From UHGV virus genome UHGV-0053799: 32,153 bases of DNA; one strand, 5' to 3'. Source of the DNA: a virus. Below, one piece after another: positions 6,476-28,789 of the stretch. Under the pieces are notes generated by a model, which saw only the letters and a program-made list of their open reading frames with translations, ran no database searches and had not been told where the DNA came from. Positions within the stretch are counted from its first letter, which is position 1, and each line of letters starts with the position of its first letter. The position numbers and the translations under genes are program-made.

Positions 6476-6785
6476 AGTCCTGATTTGTACTCACTCATTT
6501 TCCGACTGACAATTTACTTAGCCCAAAAGCTATCAAATCTGACAGTCTGCTTTGAGCGAGGAGCGGACATTGCTAACAGCGTTTTATGTGAATTAACAGG
6601 GAGTAGGTCAACGTAGCGCTAGTGGAGTGTATTCTGGCTTAAAGTGTGGAGCAGTTGTCAGATTCAATGCTCATTGCAAAAAATTGTGTTCTAAAGAGGG
6701 CTGTTATATGTTATAGGTTGTTAAGTACCATCGGTGTAAAATACACTTAGAAGTGTCAAACAAGATCGTTCAAAAGGAAGACAAA

Positions 6786-7043
6786 ATGAATAACCAGCAG
6801 TTTAGGGATTTTTTGCGCAAAAATGCACATATTGTGGATTCCAATTGGAATCCAACAGATGCACAGCTAGATGAAATCAGAGCAGCAATACAGAGAGAAC
6901 TAGATCTAGGTAATAAGATAAACTATAGCTGCCTTCAACATATCATTATTCGCATTACTGGCACTACTAGGGTAATGATATTTGATAGCGTTGATAATAG
7001 TGATTTAAACATGCTATTAACTGCAGCAACAAAAAAGAGTTAA
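6786..7043 (+). CDS. Hypothetical small protein (cargo, first gene of a two-gene cassette)
   Basis: ATG at 6786 preceded by AAGGAAG (6774-6780); 85 aa, no TM segment; AT-rich; the track ORF from 6753 begins with GTG and lacks an RBS. Confidence 0.55.
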   Translation: MNNQQFRDFLRKNAHIVDSNWNPTDAQLDEIRAAIQRELDLGNKINYSCLQHIIIRITGTTRVMIFDSVDNSDLNMLLTAATKKS

Positions 7044-7046
7044 TAA

Positions 7047-7748
7047 ATGGAAAATTTGGAAGAAAAGCTTTCTGCGAAGAAAGCTTTGTTTATTTCATCT
7101 GTAAGAAAATTTCTCTCGTCTAAAAACAGAGATAATTTCATAGATTGCATGATCAATGGTACCGCCTATTTCAATGAGGCAGAAAAAATGGTGGGTAATA
7201 GTAAGCTACAAGGTAAGCACAACGATGGTTTATGGGTAACTGACTTAGCCGAGTCTTGTGAGGCAATACTTGACTCTTATCTTCTGCATATTGAATTTAT
7301 CAAGTCACACCATGAAGACATGATGGGTGAAAGTTATAAGAAACCAAACCTGCATGCCCTTTCCAGTATGCAAAGAATGGTGAAGATGTATTGTCAGAAA
7401 GAATCATCCAGTCACCTGAGAGAAAGATTCTTAAAAGCTAACTTACCAACAAAGGGTTTTGACGTGGCTCACAGAGACGATATTGATACTGCAAATAAAT
7501 ATATAACATTAGGTATTGGGTCAGTATTAGTTATAATGTCATTTGCTTTTGCAATGTTCATGGATAATCCTTCGTATTTTAAAATCTTTATAATAAGATC
7601 AACTTTTGCTGTTGGCTGTGCAGCCTTGGCCTCATTTGTTCCTGGATGGATAAACGTTAACGTAAAAGGGTATGTAAAAGCAGGAGGAGCCATTGCTATT
7701 ATTTTAATATTTTATTTCTTTAACCCCCCTGCAATGCTGATTGGCTAA
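7047..7748 (+). CDS. Hypothetical membrane protein: soluble N-terminal domain (~155 aa) + C-terminal 2-3 TM helices (cargo)
   Basis: 233-aa ORF starting 3 nt after the upstream stop; hydrophobic stretches YITLGIGSVLVIMSFAFAMF, FAVGCAALASFVPGWI, AGGAIAIILIFYFF; a 60-nt sample has 28% G+C. Confidence 0.6.
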   Translation: MENLEEKLSAKKALFISSVRKFLSSKNRDNFIDCMINGTAYFNEAEKMVGNSKLQGKHNDGLWVTDLAESCEAILDSYLLHIEFIKSHHEDMMGESYKKPNLHALSSMQRMVKMYCQKESSSHLRERFLKANLPTKGFDVAHRDDIDTANKYITLGIGSVLVIMSFAFAMFMDNPSYFKIFIIRSTFAVGCAALASFVPGWINVNVKGYVKAGGAIAIILIFYFFNPPAMLIG

Positions 7749-12415: not shown

Positions 12416-12763
12416 TCAACTCACAGGGATGGTTAACGAAAGTGGCTGGCCGGTGTCGTTGTGCTGACCGGTTAACGTGACCGTCATTCGCCCGTCAAAA
12501 CTGCGCGCCGTGGTGACGGATGACAGGGTGACGCGGGGTTCCCATTTCAGCACTGCCATGTAACAGGCGACCTTAATCTGCAACTCAAGCGCCGGGGTCT
12601 GCGGCTGGTCAATCATTGACGCCAGCAACGAGCCGTAATCACGACGCATCACCCGTGAGCCGACGGGGGTACGCAGGATATCGCCGATACTCTGGCTGAT
12701 ATGCTCAAGGTCAGTGACAGTCAGGCCATCACTGCGATTCATTCCGAGATAACGCGCAGTCAT
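12416..12763 (-). CDS. W: Baseplate protein W
   Basis: 115-aa ORF, same length and position as P2 gpW. Confidence 0.9.
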   Translation of the reverse strand: MTARYLGMNRSDGLTVTDLEHISQSIGDILRTPVGSRVMRRDYGSLLASMIDQPQTPALELQIKVACYMAVLKWEPRVTLSSVTTARSFDGRMTVTLTGQHNDTGQPLSLTIPVS

Positions 12764-13395
12764 AGAGGTCCCCCGGTTGTGCCGCCGCTGTCGCCGGGGG
12801 GTTTATGGGTAGGCAGTACCTTACCGTTTGATGAGAGCTCACCGCCGGTGTGTTCAATGTTGCCGCGCATCGTCCCGCCCTTCTGCACTTCCAGCGTGCC
12901 GGTAATCAGCCTGTTGGTGCAGACCACCTCCGGTGTGTCCAGGGTGATGCGGGTTGATGCTTTCACCATGACCACCGGCACCGTGGCAGTAACAGAATCA
13001 GAAGCCGTCACGCTGGCCGTTTTAACTCCGCTTACCGTGAGCGCGCTGGTTTCAGGTTCATACTCAATCACCGCCCCGTCAGGGAAACGGATATGCAGGG
13101 CATCCGCCGACGCAGACGGCGCGGGGTTATCGCCGGAATAAATCCCTGGCAGAACGAACGCCGTGTCGAGTTCACCACCCACGGCCAGAATCAGCACCTG
13201 TTCCCCCACGGAAGGTGCCCACCATGTGCGCGAACGCCCGGCGCGATGGGTCAGCCACTGAAGCCAGTCGGTGCACATGCCGCCGGTCTGCACACGGCAG
13301 CGACCGGCATTAAGGTCGGTTTCGACGATAATGCCGGTGCGGATCATGTTGCGCAGTGCGCGCGCGAGTTCCTGAATATTTGCGAGAGTGTTCAT
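12760..13395 (-). CDS. V: Baseplate spike protein V
   Basis: Track ORF extends to 13413; start placed at the in-frame ATG 13395 (MNTLANIQELARAL...), as I recall P2 gpV; 211 aa. Confidence 0.85.
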   Translation of the reverse strand: MNTLANIQELARALRNMIRTGIIVETDLNAGRCRVQTGGMCTDWLQWLTHRAGRSRTWWAPSVGEQVLILAVGGELDTAFVLPGIYSGDNPAPSASADALHIRFPDGAVIEYEPETSALTVSGVKTASVTASDSVTATVPVVMVKASTRITLDTPEVVCTNRLITGTLEVQKGGTMRGNIEHTGGELSSNGKVLPTHKPPGDSGGTTGGPL

Positions 13396-13478
13396 GCGTG
13401 TGAGATTGCACAATATATAAAAGTTATGCTATCTGGATTCATTTGTAGAACGACCATACAACATTCGAGGAGAGCGTA

Positions 13479-14264
13479 ATGTTCAGTGATAATGTGACTA
13501 ATGCGTGGTGGTTTATCTCTTTGTATCTATTTTTATTAATAGCATTAACATTTGTTACCTTTGGTAAAAGTAATCTTATGAGGTTTATTGCACATCATTT
13601 CAATCTTGAGTATTCAGACAGAAAGTTAAAAATGCTCGACAAAAAATGGCGCGACATTCAACTATTTAAAATAATTAACGGAATCAATGTATCAAGCATC
13701 GAAGATGTGAGAATGATACAGCAGGGGCTGATTGATGGAAAACTAAAAACATCGTATTTTTTCCTTACTCGCTTCTGGGGTGACATAACAAAACCACCAC
13801 ACATAATTAAAACAACAATTGTAATTCTGGCCAGTATTATTTATATTCTCTTCGCATGTTATATACACAATGAACAATCCGCTATAGTAAGGGATGCCAT
13901 AGGTATACCATATAAAAATATGATGTACTATGTTTATAGTGACAAAGTTCTTTTATCCTTCAAAAATAAAACGGTTGAATTTAATAAAACTTATAGCCTT
14001 GCCGATTGCAAGAGTCTGCAAAACGTATTTATAAAAGACACACTTCCCGAGATCGCCTGCAATAAGCTCTTACAGCTAAACAAGGAGGACTCCGAATGGT
14101 TAAGTCAGGAGATTAAAGATAATAACAGCCACAGAAAAACATTATTAATAATATCCCTAACCTATTTCATTTCAGGTCTGCTTATATTCCTGTCATATAC
14201 AAAATTCCTTTACACCAATAAGAAGGTTTTAGAATACAAAGCATCAAATAAAAACCACTCATAA
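13479..14264 (+). CDS. Hypothetical membrane protein, 3 predicted TM helices (cargo at the orf30 position)
   Basis: 261-aa opposite-strand ORF with GAGGAG RBS (13466-13471); hydrophobic segments WWFISLYLFLLIALTFVTF, IIKTTIVILASIIYILFACYI, TLLIISLTYFISGLLIFLSY; a 60-nt sample has 28% G+C. Confidence 0.6.
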   Translation: MFSDNVTNAWWFISLYLFLLIALTFVTFGKSNLMRFIAHHFNLEYSDRKLKMLDKKWRDIQLFKIINGINVSSIEDVRMIQQGLIDGKLKTSYFFLTRFWGDITKPPHIIKTTIVILASIIYILFACYIHNEQSAIVRDAIGIPYKNMMYYVYSDKVLLSFKNKTVEFNKTYSLADCKSLQNVFIKDTLPEIACNKLLQLNKEDSEWLSQEIKDNNSHRKTLLIISLTYFISGLLIFLSYTKFLYTNKKVLEYKASNKNHS

Positions 14265-20535: not shown

Positions 20536-20708
20536 TGTCAGGAGTCCTGAATAGTGATTAGAGGAGTCACATGTCGGCATCAGTTTCCCGACGATGCGCA
20601 TCCTCCGCCATCAGTCCCGGATGGCTTATCACTGACACAACAGCACCTTAGCGAATCGCGGGGCGCGACTCAGTAGCCTTGCCGTGTATTCATCACGGCG
20701 AGGTATTC

Positions 20709-22481
20709 ATGACCATCACCACAGACACCACTCTTTTACACGACCCGCGTCGTCAGGCGGCGCTGCTGTACTGGCAGGGGTTTTCCGTGCCGCAGATTGC
20801 CGCCATGTTGCAGATGAAACGCCCGACGGTGCAGAGCTGGAAACAGCGCGACGGCTGGGACAGCGTTGCCCCCATCAGCCGTGTCGAAATGAGTCTGGAA
20901 GCGCGGCTGACCCAGCTCATCATCAAACCGCAGAAAACCGGCGGGGACTTCAAGGAAATTGACCTGCTGGGACGCCAGATTGAACGACTGGCACGGGTCA
21001 ACCGTTACAGCCAGACCGGCAACGAGGCAGACCTTAATCCGAACATCGCTAACCGCAACAAAGGCGGGCGTCGCAAACCGAAAAAGAATTTTTTCAGTGA
21101 CGAGGCCATCGAAAAGCTGGAGCAGATTTTCTTTGAGCAGTCTTTCGAATATCAGTTGCACTGGTATCGCGCCGGGCTTGAGCACCGCATCCGCGATATC
21201 CTGAAATCCCGCCAGATTGGCGCGACGTTTTATTTTTCCCGCGAGGCGCTGCTGCGCGCCCTGAAAACCGGTCATAACCAGATTTTTCTGTCGGCCAGTA
21301 AAACGCAGGCGTATGTGTTCCGCGAATACATCATCGCCTTTGCCCGGCTGGTTGACGTTGACCTGACCGGTGACCCGATTGTCCTTGGCAATAACGGCGC
21401 AAAACTGATTTTTCTCGGCACCAACTCCAACACCGCACAGAGCCATAACGGCGACCTGTACGTCGACGAGATTTTCTGGATCCCGAATTTTCAGGTACTG
21501 CGTAAGGTGGCATCAGGTATGGCCTCACAGAGTCACCTGCGCTCGACCTATTTCTCCACCCCGTCCACGCTGGCGCACGACGCCTACCCGTTCTGGTCGG
21601 GTGAACTGTTCAACCGGGGACGCGCCAGCGCCGCCGAACGTGTGGAAATCGACGTCAGTCATAACGCCCTTGCCGGTGGTCTTCTCTGTGCGGACGGCCA
21701 GTGGCGGCAGATTGTCACCATTGAGGACGCCCTGAAAGGCGGCTGCACATTGTTCGACATTGAGCAGCTCAAACGCGAAAACAGCGCCGACGATTTTAAA
21801 AACCTGTTCATGTGTGAATTTGTTGACGACAAGGCATCGGTGTTCCCGTTTGAGGAGCTGCAACGCTGCATGGTCGACACGCTGGAAGAATGGGAAGACT
21901 ATGCGCCGTTTGCCGCCAATCCGTTCGGCTCACGTCCGGTATGGATTGGTTACGACCCGTCACACCGTGGCGACAGCGCCGGATGCGTGGTGCTGGCACC
22001 GCCGGTGGTGGCCGGTGGCAAATTCAGAATACTTGAGCGTCACCAGTGGAAAGGCATGGACTTTGCCACTCAGGCGGAATCCATCCGCAAACTCACCGAA
22101 AAATACAACGTCGAATACATCGGAATTGATGCCACCGGCCTCGGTGTCGGCGTGTTCCAGCTCGTGCGCTCGTTCTATCCCGCCGCGCGTGATATCCGCT
22201 ACACGCCGGAAATGAAAACCGCAATGGTGCTCAAGGCAAAAGACGTTATCCGCCGTGGCTGTCTGGAATACGACGTCAGCGCCACCGACATCACCAGCTC
22301 GTTTATGGCTATCCGCAAGACCATGACCAGCAGCGGACGCAGCGCCACCTATGAGGCCAGCCGCAGCGAGGAAGCCAGCCACGCCGACCTCGCCTGGGCG
22401 ACCATGCACGCCCTGTTAAATGAGCCACTCACCGCCGGTATCAGCACCCCGCTGACATCCACCATTCTGGAGTTTTACTGA
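20709..22481 (+). CDS. P: Terminase ATPase (large) subunit P
   Basis: Start placed at MTITTDTTLLHD (20709), 590 aa; transcribed divergently from O. Confidence 0.9.
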   Translation: MTITTDTTLLHDPRRQAALLYWQGFSVPQIAAMLQMKRPTVQSWKQRDGWDSVAPISRVEMSLEARLTQLIIKPQKTGGDFKEIDLLGRQIERLARVNRYSQTGNEADLNPNIANRNKGGRRKPKKNFFSDEAIEKLEQIFFEQSFEYQLHWYRAGLEHRIRDILKSRQIGATFYFSREALLRALKTGHNQIFLSASKTQAYVFREYIIAFARLVDVDLTGDPIVLGNNGAKLIFLGTNSNTAQSHNGDLYVDEIFWIPNFQVLRKVASGMASQSHLRSTYFSTPSTLAHDAYPFWSGELFNRGRASAAERVEIDVSHNALAGGLLCADGQWRQIVTIEDALKGGCTLFDIEQLKRENSADDFKNLFMCEFVDDKASVFPFEELQRCMVDTLEEWEDYAPFAANPFGSRPVWIGYDPSHRGDSAGCVVLAPPVVAGGKFRILERHQWKGMDFATQAESIRKLTEKYNVEYIGIDATGLGVGVFQLVRSFYPAARDIRYTPEMKTAMVLKAKDVIRRGCLEYDVSATDITSSFMAIRKTMTSSGRSATYEASRSEEASHADLAWATMHALLNEPLTAGISTPLTSTILEFY

Positions 22482-23515
22482 TGAGCAAGAAAAAAGGGAA
22501 AACACCGCGACCAGCGGCAAAAACAATGACCGCCAGCGCCCCGAAAATGGAGGCATTCACCTTTGGTGAGCCGGTGCCGGTACTCGATCGCCGTGACATT
22601 CTGGATTACGTCGAGTGCATCAGTAACGGCAGATGGTATGAGCCACCGGTCAGCTTTACCGGTCTGGCAAAAAGCCTGCGTGCTGCCGTGCATCACAGCT
22701 CCCCGATTTACGTCAAACGTAATATTCTGGCCTCGACATTTATCCCGCATCCGTGGCTTTCCCAGCAGGATTTCAGCCGCTTTGTGCTGGATTTTCTGGT
22801 GTTCGGTAATGCGTTTCTGGAAAAGCGTTACAGCACCACCGGTAAGGTCATCAGACTGGAAACCTCACCGGCAAAATATACCCGCCGTGGCGTGGAAGAA
22901 GATATTTACTGGTGGGTGCCGTCCTTCAACGAGCCAACACCTTTCGCGCCCGGCTCCGTGTTTCACCTGCTGGAGCCGGATATCAATCAGGAGCTGTACG
23001 GCCTGCCGGAATATCTCAGCGCCCTTAACTCTGCCTGGCTGAATGAATCAGCCACGCTGTTCCGCCGCAAGTATTACGAAAACGGCGCACATGCCGGATA
23101 CATCATGTACGTCACCGATGCCGTGCAGGATCGCAACGATATCGAAATGCTCCGCGAAAACATGGTGAAGTCGAAAGGCCGCAACAACTTTAAAAACCTG
23201 TTTCTCTATGCCCCACAGGGGAAAGCCGACGGCATTAAAATTATCCCGCTCAGTGAAGTGGCAACGAAGGACGATTTTTTTAATATCAAAAAAGCCAGCG
23301 CCGCTGACCTGCTGGACGCGCACCGCATCCCCTTTCAGTTGATGGGCGGCAAGCCGGAGAACGTCGGGTCGCTGGGTGATATTGAGAAAGTGGCAAAGGT
23401 CTTTGTCCGCAATGAGCTTATCCCGCTACAGGACAGGATCCGCGAGATAAACGGCTGGCTCGGTCAGGAGGTCATCCGCTTTAAAAACTACTCACTGGAC
23501 ACTGACAACGGCTGA
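22481..23515 (+). CDS. Q: Portal (capsid vertex) protein Q
   Basis: 344-aa ORF; TGATG stop/start overlap with P; last gene before cos. Confidence 0.9.
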   Translation: MSKKKGKTPRPAAKTMTASAPKMEAFTFGEPVPVLDRRDILDYVECISNGRWYEPPVSFTGLAKSLRAAVHHSSPIYVKRNILASTFIPHPWLSQQDFSRFVLDFLVFGNAFLEKRYSTTGKVIRLETSPAKYTRRGVEEDIYWWVPSFNEPTPFAPGSVFHLLEPDINQELYGLPEYLSALNSAWLNESATLFRRKYYENGAHAGYIMYVTDAVQDRNDIEMLRENMVKSKGRNNFKNLFLYAPQGKADGIKIIPLSEVATKDDFFNIKKASAADLLDAHRIPFQLMGGKPENVGSLGDIEKVAKVFVRNELIPLQDRIREINGWLGQEVIRFKNYSLDTDNG

Positions 23516-23520
23516 ACATC

Positions 23521-23542
23521 GCCGCCTGCGGGCGGCTTTTTT
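23521..23542 (+). terminator. Rho-independent terminator after Q
   Basis: GCCGCC-tgcg-GGCGGC followed by TTTTTT (23537-23542), 5 nt past the Q stop codon. Confidence 0.8.
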
Positions 23543-23684
23543 ACACCCCGTCATCACGCCCTCACACGCTCACCACAGCACAAAACACCCCGCAGACACA
23601 CCAACGCCTCAACGGGCAGACTAAGCGCCTTCACGACGCGCTGAGACGCTGAAAAAATAAAATCAGCACCACCGTCAGCGCGCA

Positions 23685-23703
23685 GTGCTTTCCCCGCCTC
23701 GCC
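23685..23703. other. cos: cos cohesive-end sequence
   Basis: Plus strand gtgctttccccgcctcgcc is the reverse complement of GGCGAGGCGGGGAAAGCAC, which I recall as the P2 19-nt cohesive end; position directly beyond Q fits. Confidence 0.75.
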
Positions 23704-23828
23704 CGCCCGCTTCATGGGGCGGTTTTAATGCAGTTGCATGAGCCCACTATAAGTGCATTAGAACTGGCTGAATGAAGAGACAGCGCTTAATCTAGGAAGA
23801 TGCAATAAAATGCAACGCAATGCACTTC

Positions 23829-24527
23829 TTACAACTTCGTCATTGCTGACTCAAATTCATCATTAAATGGCTTAATTTGAGATGATGTTAGTTTTTTTAC
23901 GAACTTTTTTGTTGTTGTTTGAACTACGATTCTACCTTCACCAAGAGCATTCCCCTGGCATTCTTTTACGAACCATTCTTGAGTTACTGATGTGGTAATA
24001 CTCATTGGGATCACAAGCGTTAATATATCTCCGTAGTCTTCTAAAACATGCGGTAACTTGCCAGAGATAAGCGTCCTGGGGTTTACCAATATATTCATTG
24101 CTTTATTATTAGAAAATTGCAACACAACTGATTGAATATTACTCCTTACTTTTCTTTTGTTTGTTATGGTTATTGATATTGCTGTATCTGTAGTGCTAGG
24201 TAAGTACATTGATGGCATTAACACCATGCTATATCGAATAGCAATTTCTTCTGAATTTTCCTTTAGCGAACGGTGTGCTAACAACAATGATGTCGCAACA
24301 GCAGAAAATGCCCCCACCCCAGAAACCCAAGTACCCAACATGGTCAAAAAAGGTATTGTAATTAATTGGTATTTAGTGTCACCATTCAAACCAACACCAC
24401 TATAACCCACGTAACACCCTATAAAAAAGAATAGACAAGCCGTTATTAAAAAAAATAATAAATGCATAGAACTTATATTTTTAAATTTCAGCAACAAACC
24501 TCTTAAAATATATTTGCATCTCTTCAT
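23829..24527 (-). CDS. Hypothetical membrane protein, 2 N-terminal TM helices + ~130-aa soluble C-terminal domain (cargo)
   Basis: 232-aa ORF; hydrophobic LLFFLITACLFFFIGCYVGY and ITIPFLTMLGTWVSGVGAFSAVATSLLLA; a 60-nt sample has 18% G+C. Confidence 0.55.
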   Translation of the reverse strand: MKRCKYILRGLLLKFKNISSMHLLFFLITACLFFFIGCYVGYSGVGLNGDTKYQLITIPFLTMLGTWVSGVGAFSAVATSLLLAHRSLKENSEEIAIRYSMVLMPSMYLPSTTDTAISITITNKRKVRSNIQSVVLQFSNNKAMNILVNPRTLISGKLPHVLEDYGDILTLVIPMSITTSVTQEWFVKECQGNALGEGRIVVQTTTKKFVKKLTSSQIKPFNDEFESAMTKL

Positions 24528-24625
24528 TTTCTAATCTCACATTAAAATCAGACACCAATTTTTGCTAGTCACTATTTTTATGATTGCCAGCATAAATGCT
24601 GGCATCTTTATCATTCTGGCACAGT

Positions 24626-25357
24626 TCACTCACTTATAATTGATACAACCTCACCTGTTTCTACATTGACACGCGCAGCAATCGTCTGTTTCACCACTCC
24701 GCCATAAGCATTAGTTCCGCGAAACGTGGTTTTCACAATGGCATGCGGGTCTTTATTCAAAATCAGATGATATACCGTTGACACATGTTTATAAGATGAA
24801 TCATCGTTCATATTATCTTTAATTAGTTTTTCCAATGGACGATAAGAACCATCCCAACCACTAAAATTACTCTGAAATGTATCAAGATTGATTTTATTGT
24901 TTAGTGACTTCGGGTCATTTTCATAATCATTAAAGCACCACCCAAGAACATCACCGAGTTTCAACTCATCATCTTTGGTAAATGTATACTCACTCATGCA
25001 GGCATAAAACGCATCTGACGCGGCGGCTGGAACTTCCTTAAAATCAATGTAACTATTCACAATATCGTGTCGTGTTTTCTTTGACTCGTTCCGATATTCC
25101 TTGAGTGTTTTTTCACCATATTCGAATGTTTTTTGGACTTTGTGTTCTGCAACGGTTGATGTTTCAGTTTTAGCAACTGGCTGGCTTTTTTCTGTTGGAT
25201 AGAGTATTGAACCAATTATGCTCAATACAAAACCACCTCCGAGATAAACCGCACTTGCACGTTTGCGGTTTGGCATTCGCACCAGTGATGGCCTGATTAA
25301 CCCGATGAAGAAAGCAACGAAAAAAGCGAGTGATAGAAAAGCGATTATAGTATCCAT
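24626..25357 (-). CDS. Hypothetical membrane-anchored protein, 2 N-terminal TM helices + ~180-aa soluble domain (cargo)
   Basis: Start placed at the in-frame ATG 25357 (MDTIIAFLSLAFF...) because AAGGA lies 6 nt upstream; the track ORF extends to 25399 without an RBS; 243 aa. Confidence 0.55.
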   Translation of the reverse strand: MDTIIAFLSLAFFVAFFIGLIRPSLVRMPNRKRASAVYLGGGFVLSIIGSILYPTEKSQPVAKTETSTVAEHKVQKTFEYGEKTLKEYRNESKKTRHDIVNSYIDFKEVPAAASDAFYACMSEYTFTKDDELKLGDVLGWCFNDYENDPKSLNNKINLDTFQSNFSGWDGSYRPLEKLIKDNMNDDSSYKHVSTVYHLILNKDPHAIVKTTFRGTNAYGGVVKQTIAARVNVETGEVVSIISE

Positions 25358-25580
25358 AGCTATCCTTTTTGCATCATCCACATAAAAAATCGACCTCATG
25401 TTAGCAACAGGATGCTTACTTTTGAATATTTGTAAGTTGTTAGCTCTCCAACCTAACTCTTTTCAACCGTCAAAAACCAGCACCAACGCAGTAAAAATAT
25501 GTCTGTCAACTAACGCCTCGCTTCGCTCGTTGTTCAACCCCGCCAGCCCTGAAAACAAGTTTCACGACTGGCGGCGTTCT

Positions 25581-25787
25581 CTATCGTCTGCGTGGTGGTG
25601 GCGCAACTCTGGACTGACCGATATCGTTAAACCGTCTGTAATTATCCCGGACTATTTCGGCACACCCGACCAACTCGTCAGGCGTCAGATTTTCGTTGAG
25701 CATAATCTGCTGTAGACGGTGAACAATGGCCATCAGTTTGATATTTTTAGTTTTATGGTGCGGTATCTCGCCTGGTATTCTGTGCAT
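25581..25787 (-). CDS. Small hypothetical protein (68 aa)
   Basis: ATG at 25787 overlaps the TAA stop of the upstream ORF (TAATG), suggesting translational coupling; no recognisable motif. Confidence 0.3.
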   Translation of the reverse strand: MHRIPGEIPHHKTKNIKLMAIVHRLQQIMLNENLTPDELVGCAEIVRDNYRRFNDIGQSRVAPPPRRR

Positions 25788-26242
25788 TATCCAAGCCACC
25801 CATTTTGCTTTGCACGCTCCACCTGTTCATCTGAATAGTTCCATATCCCATCCGTAGCAACCACTGCCCCGCCAGACATCCCCGTCTCTGGTTCATACAT
25901 AACAGCAAGGCCGAGCTGATGCATAATCTCATGATTAATTCTGAATACCAGACCACGTTCACTAAGTTCTTTCCAGTTCACAATCTTATATGCGCCCGTA
26001 TTAAGCAGCTCAATACTTAGCAAGACATAATCTTCCAGCCAGTCTGACAGGTCAGTAACATCTGTTATCCGGGCTTCAACCTTTCGCCCCGTAAACACAC
26101 CCTGCACCCATTCATGCAAAATCAGCGTGTCCCCGCGCTCATAATTACGGTCATTTTTCCGAAACTCTGCGCGTTTCTTTCCTTCCAGCACAAGGTCAAA
26201 ATATTTGGCGTGCAGCTTTACCTCGTGAATTTTTGCCATCAT
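25787..26242 (-). CDS. ASCH/DUF3850-like (PUA-fold) protein with a C-terminal extension
   Basis: GKKRAEFR fits the ASCH motif GxKxxExR; GGAG RBS; start ATG overlaps the A stop codon (ATGA); C-terminal extension contains HEIMH. Confidence 0.65.
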   Translation of the reverse strand: MMAKIHEVKLHAKYFDLVLEGKKRAEFRKNDRNYERGDTLILHEWVQGVFTGRKVEARITDVTDLSDWLEDYVLLSIELLNTGAYKIVNWKELSERGLVFRINHEIMHQLGLAVMYEPETGMSGGAVVATDGIWNYSDEQVERAKQNGWLG

Positions 26243-28524
26243 TTCCACTCCATTACTATTGAGAATCCCGGCCACTCATCAGCGACCGGATACGTGAATT
26301 TTTTCCCGTCGTAATTTACGGTCGCGCCACGCGCCAGCGCCTCAAGCTCCCATCGCTGCGGCCTGATACCGTTCTGAGCGAGATCAACGCGGATACGGGT
26401 GATTTGCAATCGTTCAGACCGGGTCAGTCTGGCCGATGGTGCAATTTCATGTGGTTTTAACGGGCTTCCGTTTCTTTGCTGACGATTTGGTGTTCTCAGG
26501 TCGTGTTTTAATGCCCCCCTGAGCGCCCTCACGACCTCCGTGTCGTTCCATTCGATAACACCGTCATCAACCAGATTAAGCACTGCTGCGGCGTGTTCAG
26601 AAGGTGTGGGAGCCGGTAACGAAGTATCACCACCGGTGAGCTTTCCACAGTTATTGACAGGACTCCGAGGCGCGGCGATGCCGCTTTTTAAAGTCAAAGG
26701 CTCAACGACCGGAACTTTCGGCACAATGCGCCAGTCCGTCGTTCTGGTGATATGAATATGACGCGCGCCGAGATGCGGCGCGTAAATGCCGACCACTCTC
26801 TCGACTTCTTCCTCGTACTCGTTAACTTCATCCGACGGACTACGGGCAACCCTGACAGTCTGACAATCGCGCGGGACATTTGCCCCACCCTGCGCGCTGA
26901 TATACAACGCAAAATCACCACTGTCTGCGGCGGCGCGTGCAGCCTCGACGCGCTCGTCAAACTCATCAGCAATGCTGACGCCGCGAGGCAATTTGCGTAG
27001 TTCACGGTAAGCCCCCATTGTCGGCAGACCAACCGTTTTAAATTGTGGGATGCGCCACGTTGACGCCCATGCGGTAACAGCCGCAGCAGTATCTTTAAGC
27101 GGTCTGCCGGTATCGTTATCGAGCTGACCATCCAGTGCATAGCCATCGATGTTTTTTGAGATGTATTTCGCGATATACCCCGCAGCACCGCCCTGGTTAA
27201 GGTGTTTTGCCTGAAAACGGTTTCGCGCGGCTCCTCTTTCGTCGCCATCCTCTTTGAGCGCATAGCGACGCATGATTTCGATAATCTGGTTACGCTGGCG
27301 TGGATTACAAAAAAGCATCATATGCCAGTGCGGCGTTCCGTCGTGGTGTGGCTCGACGACACGCAAACCGTAGACCTGTAAATCATTATCCTTGAATGCC
27401 GTGCGCATCAGGCTCCAGATGCGGCAGAGATAACGCTGCGCATCCTTTGGATTAAATGCCTCATCGTTCCAGCCGTGATTAAGCTGAACGGTTTTACTTT
27501 CGCCTTTTCTGACCTGACGAGTCGGGTGATACTTTGACGGCGCGGTCAGCGTGATAAACATCCCCACATCACCCTCTGCGGCGGCGTAACGCTCAATACC
27601 GGCAATGGTGTTCATCAGCTCCATCCGGCGAATTTCAGGATTAGAAATACTGCCCATCACCTTACTGATAAGGTCGATGCGCTCGCCGGTTTCCCTGTTT
27701 TCAAGGTCACACGATTTAAGAAATTCCAGATTTGCCTGGCGGCGTGCACGCACATCACGAATGGCATGTTTACTGGCATAAGGAGAACGGTCTTTATTCA
27801 CCTCCCCGACAGCAATCAGTAACGCCTCATGCCAGCGCATACGCTGGCCTTTGAGCTGATGAGTCCACCACTCATCGTTAAACAGACGGGCAATGGCAGA
27901 ATATGCCTGCCTCGTGGTCATCTGTCCTTTACGGTATTTTTTCCAGTAAAGCGGGGAAATATTGAAAGCACGTGCAGCGCCAGCAACATGACCATAGAGG
28001 TGAGCCTGCGCCTCATCCGTAAACAGCGATTCTTTTTCGCCATGTGCATCCACCCAGGCATCGCTGAGTTCCTCATACATCATGAAAAGCTGCGATGAGA
28101 TACGGGCAGCAAACTTTTTCAGCTCCTTGTCATTCATTCCCGGCAGGCGCGCATAGTGGTCACGCTCTGCCAGAAACAGTAACGACGCGTCGGTGTTCAT
28201 TTCATGGCGCTGATTCACACGCTCAATGCGCGGCCATAAACGACGCTGAAAAGTGGATGTGAGGAAATAAAACCCGTGCACCGGGCTTTTATTGCGCCGG
28301 ATGTAGTCATAGCGTGAAGTAAACAGCGAGCGCAAAAAGTAAGGCAGGCGGTTAATCGTGGATAAAACACCTTGCACCTGACGCATCTCGTCACGTGTAA
28401 GGGGTCTTTCGCGCCCGACGGCCTCGCGTGGCGCGTTCCATGCATAAGCACCGGTAAACGCCTTACCGGTGCCTGCAGCAAATGCTGACGGAGGGACAAA
28501 ACGCCCGGAGGCTTTAACGGCCAT
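26239..28524 (-). CDS. A: Rolling-circle replication initiator A
   Basis: Start placed at MAVKASGRF (28524), 761 aa; HUH-type motif TPHWHMMLF (about 27311-27334) and paired tyrosines YIAKY (about 27163-27177). Confidence 0.9.
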   Translation of the reverse strand: MAVKASGRFVPPSAFAAGTGKAFTGAYAWNAPREAVGRERPLTRDEMRQVQGVLSTINRLPYFLRSLFTSRYDYIRRNKSPVHGFYFLTSTFQRRLWPRIERVNQRHEMNTDASLLFLAERDHYARLPGMNDKELKKFAARISSQLFMMYEELSDAWVDAHGEKESLFTDEAQAHLYGHVAGAARAFNISPLYWKKYRKGQMTTRQAYSAIARLFNDEWWTHQLKGQRMRWHEALLIAVGEVNKDRSPYASKHAIRDVRARRQANLEFLKSCDLENRETGERIDLISKVMGSISNPEIRRMELMNTIAGIERYAAAEGDVGMFITLTAPSKYHPTRQVRKGESKTVQLNHGWNDEAFNPKDAQRYLCRIWSLMRTAFKDNDLQVYGLRVVEPHHDGTPHWHMMLFCNPRQRNQIIEIMRRYALKEDGDERGAARNRFQAKHLNQGGAAGYIAKYISKNIDGYALDGQLDNDTGRPLKDTAAAVTAWASTWRIPQFKTVGLPTMGAYRELRKLPRGVSIADEFDERVEAARAAADSGDFALYISAQGGANVPRDCQTVRVARSPSDEVNEYEEEVERVVGIYAPHLGARHIHITRTTDWRIVPKVPVVEPLTLKSGIAAPRSPVNNCGKLTGGDTSLPAPTPSEHAAAVLNLVDDGVIEWNDTEVVRALRGALKHDLRTPNRQQRNGSPLKPHEIAPSARLTRSERLQITRIRVDLAQNGIRPQRWELEALARGATVNYDGKKFTYPVADEWPGFSIVMEWK

Positions 28525-28789
28525 ATGAGCCAAAAGCCTCTGAACAACGCCTGCTGAGTTGCTCAACCTGCACGTTTAAATCAGCAAAAGACTTTGCGCT
28601 TCCGGTCAGAATATCGTGATGCATCAGGCCTGAAACGAGCTGGCTTAATTTCGGGTAATAACCAACCACCGCCAGCCATTCCTGACCGGCGTTTTTACCG
28701 CTTTCAGCTCTCTTTTTCTCGTGGAGAATAAACTGAAAGCTGTCACTGGTAACGACATAACGTTCGCCAATTTCAATACGAATACTCAT
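28514..28789 (-). CDS. Hypothetical early protein (P2 orf83 position)
   Basis: 91-aa ORF whose start overlaps the upstream stop (ATGA). Confidence 0.6.
   Translation of the reverse strand: MSIRIEIGERYVVTSDSFQFILHEKKRAESGKNAGQEWLAVVGYYPKLSQLVSGLMHHDILTGSAKSFADLNVQVEQLSRRCSEAFGSYGR

Follow-up and report, generated by a model that had tools for sequence, protein, structure and literature searches.

The window analysed here, that is, the whole 32,153-nucleotide (nt) stretch of the virus genome UHGV-0053799, is a P2-like (Peduovirus) phage genome. Our subject is a gene for a protein of 232 amino acids (aa) that lies beside the cohesive-end site (cos) of this phage. It closes a minus-strand cluster made up of the replication endonuclease gene gpA, a DUF3850/ASCH gene, a small open reading frame (ORF), a 243-aa gene and the 232-aa gene itself, whose stop codon is 125 bp from the exact P2 cos. 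An initial annotation, made from the letters of the DNA alone, had described a 232-aa ORF at this place as a second cargo gene beside cos; the frame is exactly as claimed, and the exact 19-nt P2 cohesive-end sequence confirms the position. The features of the locus are collected in Table 1.

Table 1. Features at the cos-proximal cargo locus and within the 232-aa gene; positions are counted from the first nucleotide of the window
Feature	Position	Strand	Remarks
232-aa gene, coding sequence	23829-24527	(-)	ATG start, 232 aa; same sequence as RefSeq WP_001764709.1 'hypothetical protein'; predicted inner-membrane protein with two transmembrane (TM) helices and a C-terminal beta-sandwich domain
Basic N-terminal helix, residues 1-20	24468-24527	(-)	6 K/R, 0 D/E; helix 2-17 in the AlphaFold2 (AF2) model; absent in most distant homologues
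TM1, residues ~21-44	24396-24467	(-)	Called from hydropathy; conserved F34, G37xxxG41
TM2, residues ~55-84	24276-24365	(-)	Most conserved segment of the family; W67, A76 invariant
C-terminal domain, residues 95-232	23832-24245	(-)	Predicted immunoglobulin (Ig)-like beta-sandwich and terminal helix; variable; probably cytoplasmic
Spacer, 98 bp	24528-24625	(-)	Perfect hairpin at 24585-24604
Exchangeable cassette (895 bp)	23740-24634		232-aa gene and both flanks; reaches from the cos region to the stop codon of the Orf97-like gene
Mosaic segment	23695-24094		3' third of the 232-aa gene and downstream DNA; 14.5% divergent from phage P22H4, against ~1% in the rest of the locus
Orf97-like neighbouring cargo gene, 243 aa	24626-25357	(-)	78% aa identity to phage 186 Orf97; separate module
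Replication endonuclease gene gpA	26239-28566	(-)	One hotspot border
P2-type cos cohesive-end sequence GGCGAGGCGGGGAAAGCAC	23685-23703	(-)	Exact 19-mer
Portal gene gpQ	22481-23515	(+)	Convergent with the 232-aa gene; other hotspot border
Terminase ATPase gene	20679-22481	(+)	

In P2 the interval from gpA through cos to gpQ is the site of old and tin. For E. coli, Rousset et al. 2022 reported 1,650 arrangements of this interval, which they called a diversity hotspot; it holds several validated anti-phage systems along with non-defence cargo such as partition systems and cytolethal distending toxin (PMC9122126). Their Table S5A lists the very arrangement found here, WP_032242139 + WP_001484278 + WP_001764709, as "hypothetical" (PMC9122126). 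The initial annotation recognized neither the hotspot with its catalogued arrangement nor the identity of the 243-aa neighbour, which is a homologue of Orf97 of phage 186. By sequence comparison, the 232-aa protein belongs to a new, uncharacterised family in a known kind of locus; the novelty goes as far as this because the context had been described and the gene had already been catalogued as hypothetical.

The 232-aa frame is a genuine gene under purifying selection. At its own base composition the chance that 232 codons would stay open is ~6e-9, and in 2000 shuffles of the cassette the longest open stretch was 164 codons, against 233 observed. In comparison with the allele of phage P22H4, the ratio of nonsynonymous to synonymous substitution rates (dN/dS) is 0.31 across the whole gene, with 0.15 over residues 1-149 and 0.38 over residues 150-232. 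The copy in a prophage of E. coli O55:H7 USDA5905 shows 0 nt differences, within surroundings (2.3 kb) that are 99.6% identical.

Its base composition is distinct, as is looked for in a moron: 34.3% G+C, whereas the whole window has 51.3%, and its relatives likewise usually fall below the G+C of their neighbours. The initial annotation had assigned it to the most AT-rich DNA of the window, citing 18% G+C for positions 24421-24480. That segment measures 18.3%, which is the minimum 60-nt value of the window, and the lowest 300-nt value (29.0%, from 24346) also falls inside the gene, so that the claim stands at both scales; at 700 nt it does not, a stretch from 13512 being slightly lower in G+C (32.3%, against 33.7% for the region of the gene).

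The gene lies between gpA and the portal gene Q, adjoining cos, and the content of this slot differs between prophages with near-identical flanks. By blastn the IHE3034 prophage matches the window, at 96-97% identity, only at 23400-23739 and 24635-26300; an unrelated 260-aa gene there replaces the 895-bp cassette and the Orf97-like gene is kept. Complete E. coli genomes contain the DNA of the 232-aa gene in 6 of 5426 cases, always chromosomal, while the flanking sequence is present in 2178. Among isolated phages, Escherichia phage 9W and P22H4 carry the gene. In phage 186, orf97 is followed directly by the terminator t95b and cos. Because of the IHE3034 swap, the disparity of 6 and 2178 genomes and the gene order of 186, the 232-aa gene is a separately exchangeable cassette. 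Cargo status, as the initial annotation proposed, is thus upheld by the variable gpA-gpQ hotspot, a G+C far under that of the backbone and the genome counts: this is a real, rare accessory cargo gene in an independent cassette.

The replacing 260-aa gene (L003:1865-2647 in the IHE3034 prophage) was considered as a diverged allele of the 232-aa gene and rejected (BLASTP E 0.13). It occurs in many E. coli P2-like prophages, in the same slot downstream of the Orf97-like gene. Neither Pfam nor PADLOC has a match for it, and it counts as a further uncharacterised cassette.

Exchange has also reached into the gene. Relative to P22H4, 58 mismatches fall within the 400 bp of the mosaic segment, and the Orf97-like gene differs at 6 of 732 nt; gene by gene, the difference is 0.8% for the Orf97-like gene and 6.9% for the 232-aa gene. 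Because the differences concentrate in this segment, a recombination junction lies inside the 232-aa gene near 24095.

A word-indexed search returned close E. coli relatives and one 52% homologue only. A hidden Markov model (HMM) search of 1.84 billion cluster representatives returned 69 proteins at E <=1e-3, nearly all of 180-230 aa and matched end to end; these stand for clusters at 50% identity and come from across the Proteobacteria. Members 22-30% identical to the window protein hold the same slot in Enterobacter hormaechei, Enterobacter asburiae, the Enterobacter cloacae complex, Citrobacter sedlakii and Serratia proteamaculans, each in a P2-like prophage that lacks an Orf97-like gene; there the family member reads in the same direction as gpA, and no further gene separates it from cos and the portal gene. 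In S. proteamaculans the family member is the sole gene between gpA and cos.

A genome scan for distant loci, which used a 12-member sub-alignment, added 16 further loci, including ones in Vibrio, Pseudomonas, Halopseudomonas, Idiomarina, Halomonas, Variovorax and Microvirga. None of the 16 has P2-type genes beside it. The neighbours are phage morphogenesis genes (DUF4055 portal, Mu F-like, gp13-like capsid) and integrases, with one lysis cassette (GH108), and the family gene usually lies below them in G+C. The distribution of the family is that of a mobile prophage accessory gene. Two of these loci adjoin the PADLOC defence candidates PDC-S51 and PDC-M54A, a hint that some of the copies outside prophages belong to defence islands. 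In Idiomarina aquatica (L027:7597-8730) the family gene is followed directly by a strong PDC-S51 homologue (E 2.5e-135), and in Onishia niordana (L019:8517-10892) a low-G+C neighbour of 791 aa matches PDC-M54A and the N-terminus of HamA.

Some members have a small companion, an 85-aa soluble protein that is 67-93% identical between loci (L011:5697-5954, L005:7698-7955, L007:7684-7944, L014:255-512, L016:6770-7027). In Enterobacter/Citrobacter P2-like prophages its gene immediately precedes the family gene, and in a 186-like element it immediately follows. The protein has no Pfam or PADLOC match. It was considered as an obligate partner and rejected, being absent from the window and from Serratia and widespread in phages without the family: most of the 36 phage records that contain it (P22-like, SSU5-like and Klebsiella phages) lack the 2-TM family. 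It looks like an independent small gene.

TM segments of the 232-aa protein were called by Kyte-Doolittle hydropathy. The two N-terminal helices and the ~130-aa C-terminal domain of the initial annotation are found alike by hydropathy and by the AF2 model, with a domain of ~138 aa. The model was built on a 34-sequence alignment and has a predicted local distance difference test score (pLDDT) of 87.9 and a predicted template modelling score (pTM) of 0.71; a run on a 4-sequence alignment (pLDDT 58) was discarded in its favour. From the N-terminus, the model predicts a helix (residues 2-17), two helices that form a hairpin (20-46 and 51-90), a beta-sandwich at 95-212 and, as the last element, a helix at 215-231. 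As modelled, the architecture of the family is a 2-TM hairpin followed by an Ig-like C-terminal domain.

Over 32 diverse members, the TM hairpin is the best conserved part, and the C-terminal domain is poorly conserved. F34 is kept in 91% of members, G37 in 97% and G41 in 100% within TM1, and G65 in 97% within TM2, where a ladder of positions (62, 65, 66, 69, 70, 72, 73, 76, 80, 84) has at least 91% small residues at each step. After the TM2 helix E93 is conserved, and within the C-terminal domain conservation is limited to L158-P159, Y165-G166, G192 and a T-T strand (T204-T205). All of the family motifs are present in the window protein: G37xxxG41, G65-x-W67 with the ladder, E93, the L-P...Y-G loop and the T-T-T strand. 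Small-residue ladders and GxxxG are the usual signature of tight helix-helix association. Because the hairpin is more conserved than the soluble domain, it is probably not a mere anchor. The density of lysine and arginine falls from 0.21 at the N-terminus to 0.10 in the loop between TM1 and TM2 and rises again to 0.17 beyond TM2; under the positive-inside rule, we infer from these densities an N-in/C-in topology that would place the sandwich in the cytoplasm.

The initial annotation had recognized no known family in the protein, and our comparisons agree. It has no match in Pfam (E up to 1), in NCBIfam or in PADLOC-DB v2 (E up to 1, including Old and the CBASS/Pycsar TM effectors), nor have 34 family members in Pfam (E up to 0.01) or PADLOC. 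Its PHROGs matches are two families, both of unknown function, one of which models the C-terminal 126 aa only, because of truncated annotations. The best hit of a PDB sequence-profile search is not significant (E 0.069). Homology was rejected for P22 SieB (PF14163; hhalign probability 1.2%, no Pfam match), for P22 SieA (0.2%) and for the Orf97-like neighbour when compared with the family profile (0.7%). Literature searches on WP_001764709.1, orf97 and P2-like exclusion proteins found nothing on the family. Motif searches in the available portion of the supplementary tables of Rousset et al. found the Orf97-like protein, but the curated and tested sequences there included no family member (PMC9122126).

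The neighbouring gene links the locus to an annotated phenotype: the GenBank note on phage 186 Orf97 reads "expression from plasmid blocks 186 infection"; exclusion functions do therefore occur at this spot, since the neighbour is a homologue of that protein. Table S5B of Rousset et al. enters the Orf97-like protein as system 12, with one gene, 210 occurrences and the remark "2 TM" (PMC9122126). The pairing of Orf97 with a family member (52% identity) recurs in the 186-like element L016 and in Salmonella phage PHB48, and in 186-like phages the family member follows tum-orf97, a LexA-controlled SOS operon. The Orf97-like gene of the window stands in a P2-like phage without tum and the LexA-controlled p95 promoter, its drivers in 186. 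Upstream of it lies an inverted repeat with 19-nt arms (25536-25578, within 25510-25578), 87% identical to a phage 186 sequence that is located downstream of orf97 (L004 213-281). The repeat looks like a conserved junction where cargo modules join in different orders.

The 243-aa and 232-aa genes are co-directional, and the gap of 98 bp between them contains a perfect hairpin, both as initially annotated. The hairpin is a perfect inverted repeat, TGCCAGCAT/ATGCTGGCA, after which the coding (-) strand reads AUCAUAAAAAUAG. It was considered as a canonical intrinsic terminator between the two genes and rejected, because no U-tract follows it on the coding strand. Neither of the hairpins that flank the 232-aa gene has a U-tract on that strand, so no canonical terminator borders the gene, and a consensus sigma-70 promoter was not detected in the 98-bp spacer. 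A 10-bp RNA hairpin predicted immediately before the start codon (24530-24552, minus strand) covers the sole Shine-Dalgarno-like bases (GAGA) and might limit translation initiation. The codon for Met21 (24465-24467) is in frame right before TM1. Most distant homologues start at about this point, one RefSeq record annotates a 212-aa product from Met21, and only the E. coli and Salmonella subgroup has the basic extension of 20 residues. By analogy with other phage membrane regulators, two products from the gene via Met21 are conceivable.

Two more AT-rich islands lie elsewhere in the window. A 261-aa ORF with hydrophobic segments (13479-14264, plus strand; ~31-32% G+C) stands directly after the putative baseplate spike gene (12760-13413) and probably marks a second cargo locus. 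The other island (34-38% G+C) comprises adjacent plus-strand ORFs of 96 aa (6753-7043) and 233 aa (7047-7748), the latter with hydrophobic C-terminal segments, and may be a further accessory locus.

We read the 232-aa gene as a single-gene, membrane-acting phage-exclusion or abortive-infection module, a function taken from its context and to which we give a probability of about one half. The features that fit an exclusion or abortive protein are a variable, recombining soluble domain, occurrence as a single gene, residence in the accessory slots of several prophage types and an Orf97 homologue next to it in an anti-phage hotspot. Acting alone at the membrane, the protein would protect the lysogen or the induced cell from other phages. 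The basic N-terminus would be cytoplasmic, the two-helix hairpin tightly packed and the Ig-like sandwich turned toward the cytoplasm. The variable beta-sandwich would recognize a phage or host component. The conserved hairpin would be the working part, which might oligomerise into a leak or pore (abortive infection) or might bind a host membrane component needed by incoming phage DNA (superinfection exclusion); we make no firm choice between a pore or leak and a block of DNA entry.

A bolder proposal, which we regard as possible though on the doubtful side, extends this to the family as a whole. The family would be an unrecognized anti-phage system of one protein, carried through the Proteobacteria by prophages. 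Its fast-evolving cytoplasmic Ig-like domain would sense a phage component and switch the conserved glycine-zipper-like hairpin into an oligomeric leak, with sensor and abortive-infection effector together in ~200 aa.

Several points weigh against an exclusion or abortive function. No known defence or exclusion family is matched. Neither a consensus promoter nor a canonical terminator was found around the gene, so that its expression in the lysogen is a presumption. The predicted topology is drawn from charge counts, and the beta-sandwich is a generic fold that says nothing specific on a ligand. Among the new candidates from the P2 hotspot, three of eight protected against the phage panel of Rousset et al. 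(PMC9122126); because of this success rate and the non-defence cargo of the hotspot, location alone is weak evidence for defence.

The hotspot's partition systems and cytolethal distending toxin (PMC9122126) are also the starting point for an account in which the gene is lysogenic-conversion or host-fitness cargo unrelated to defence, acting for example in stress tolerance, colonisation, the physiology of the envelope or toxin or bacteriocin immunity. General morons typically have the wide spread seen for this family, which occurs in prophages and islands of many Proteobacteria, and no defence model matched. We nevertheless consider this account unlikely, as no domain or neighbour indicates virulence or metabolism, a fast-evolving soluble domain on a conserved membrane core better suits an arms race, and presence in 6 of 5426 E. 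coli genomes speaks against a broadly useful host trait.

Alternatively the protein may serve the phage itself at induction or in lytic growth, as part of an SOS or late transcript, in lysis timing, membrane energetics, DNA exit or entry, or the blocking of re-infection of the induced cell. The position of a family member after the LexA-controlled operon of 186-like phages would suit such a role, as would read-through from the Orf97-like gene, which is plausible given a spacer hairpin without U-tract; and a basic N-terminal extension followed by an in-frame Met21 before TM1 resembles the dual-start membrane regulators. A life-cycle function is quite unlikely, however, for a dispensable gene: most P2-like phages are without it and related prophages have an unrelated gene in its place. 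P2-like lysis genes are located elsewhere, and relatives of the gene occupy unrelated positions in other phage types.

The initial annotation left a choice between two independent morons and a two-component membrane system, in which the 232-aa and Orf97-like proteins would be co-transcribed and work only together. Co-direction, the 98-bp distance, the lack of a canonical terminator or detected promoter between the genes, the recurrence of the pair in two lineages (the P2-like window and the 186-like L016 and PHB48) and the membrane nature of both proteins ('2 TM' for the Orf97-like one in Table S5B, PMC9122126) would allow an obligate pair. It is very improbable in view of how each gene fares without the other. 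The cassette of the 232-aa gene has been exchanged alone with the Orf97-like gene retained, Orf97 of phage 186 is followed directly by terminator and cos, and the catalogue has the Orf97-like gene as a single-gene system with its 210 occurrences (PMC9122126). Family members in Enterobacter, Citrobacter, Serratia, Pseudomonas and Vibrio are without an Orf97-like neighbour, and divergence from P22H4 is unequal (0.8% against 6.9%). Of the two options independence is thus favoured, and neither gene depends on the other; where both are present, as their recurrence in 186-like elements suggests, they may cooperate.

That the frame is spurious or decaying in AT-rich junk DNA beside cos, for which one might cite fragments annotated alone in some phage records (89 aa in P22H4, the 126-aa PHROG 23429) and strong expression signals that were not found, is effectively refuted by the conservation data, namely a dN/dS of 0.31 and a 69-cluster family with conserved architecture, as well as by the ~6e-9 chance of a 232-codon open frame in 34% G+C DNA and the confident AF2 fold.

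In about a fifth of P2-like elements the hotspot contains only genes of unknown function (PMC13586616). One such gene, catalogued as 'hypothetical', now becomes a defined family of ~69 clusters with a confident model and diagnostic motifs, set apart from the Orf97-like gene. It is a compact and well-defined candidate for testing, a single 700-bp gene with obvious point mutants. Should it prove active as the exclusion or abortive-infection module that we favour, it would add a minimal membrane-acting example of such modules and a natural system in which to study the control of a conserved TM hairpin by a variable soluble domain; should it have no effect on phages, it would be a helpful example against assigning defence to a gene from its place in a defence hotspot.

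Among the classical exclusion proteins, P22 SieA, P22/lambda SieB and T4 Imm are, like the 232-aa protein, small inner-membrane proteins of phages or prophages that act alone and are encoded in accessory positions; neither the protein nor the 34 members has a Pfam or PHROG match to any annotated family of this kind. The CBASS effectors of the Cap15 type, reportedly described by Duncan-Lowey et al. in 2021, a study that Rousset et al. cite on membrane effectors, are said to have two TM segments and a small beta-domain, with the soluble domain controlling membrane disruption. The 232-aa protein is like Cap15 in plan, with ~200 aa, two N-terminal TM helices and a compact, beta-rich domain predicted to be cytoplasmic. 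Kir/KirBac channels likewise join 2 TM segments to a cytoplasmic Ig-like domain. Its likeness to both Cap15-type effectors and Kir channels is in gross domain order only, and a channel of the Kir type, with pore helix and selectivity filter between the two TM helices, does not fit: the TM1-TM2 loop has 6-12 residues across the family, and Foldseek TM-scores are <=0.30.

Phage 186 Orf97 is, like the 232-aa protein, a membrane protein of ~240 aa encoded beside cos and co-directional with it; the two are unlike in sequence and evolutionary rate and are swapped independently. With the cargo of the P2 hotspot (old, tin and the systems validated by Rousset et al.) the gene shares its slot, orientation, low G+C, cassette-like exchange and compact size, whereas its product is unrelated, in sequence and in fold, to Old, to Tin and to every validated or candidate PADLOC system. 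By position and variability it belongs to the cos-proximal hotspot cargo of P2, with a putative anti-phage phenotype.

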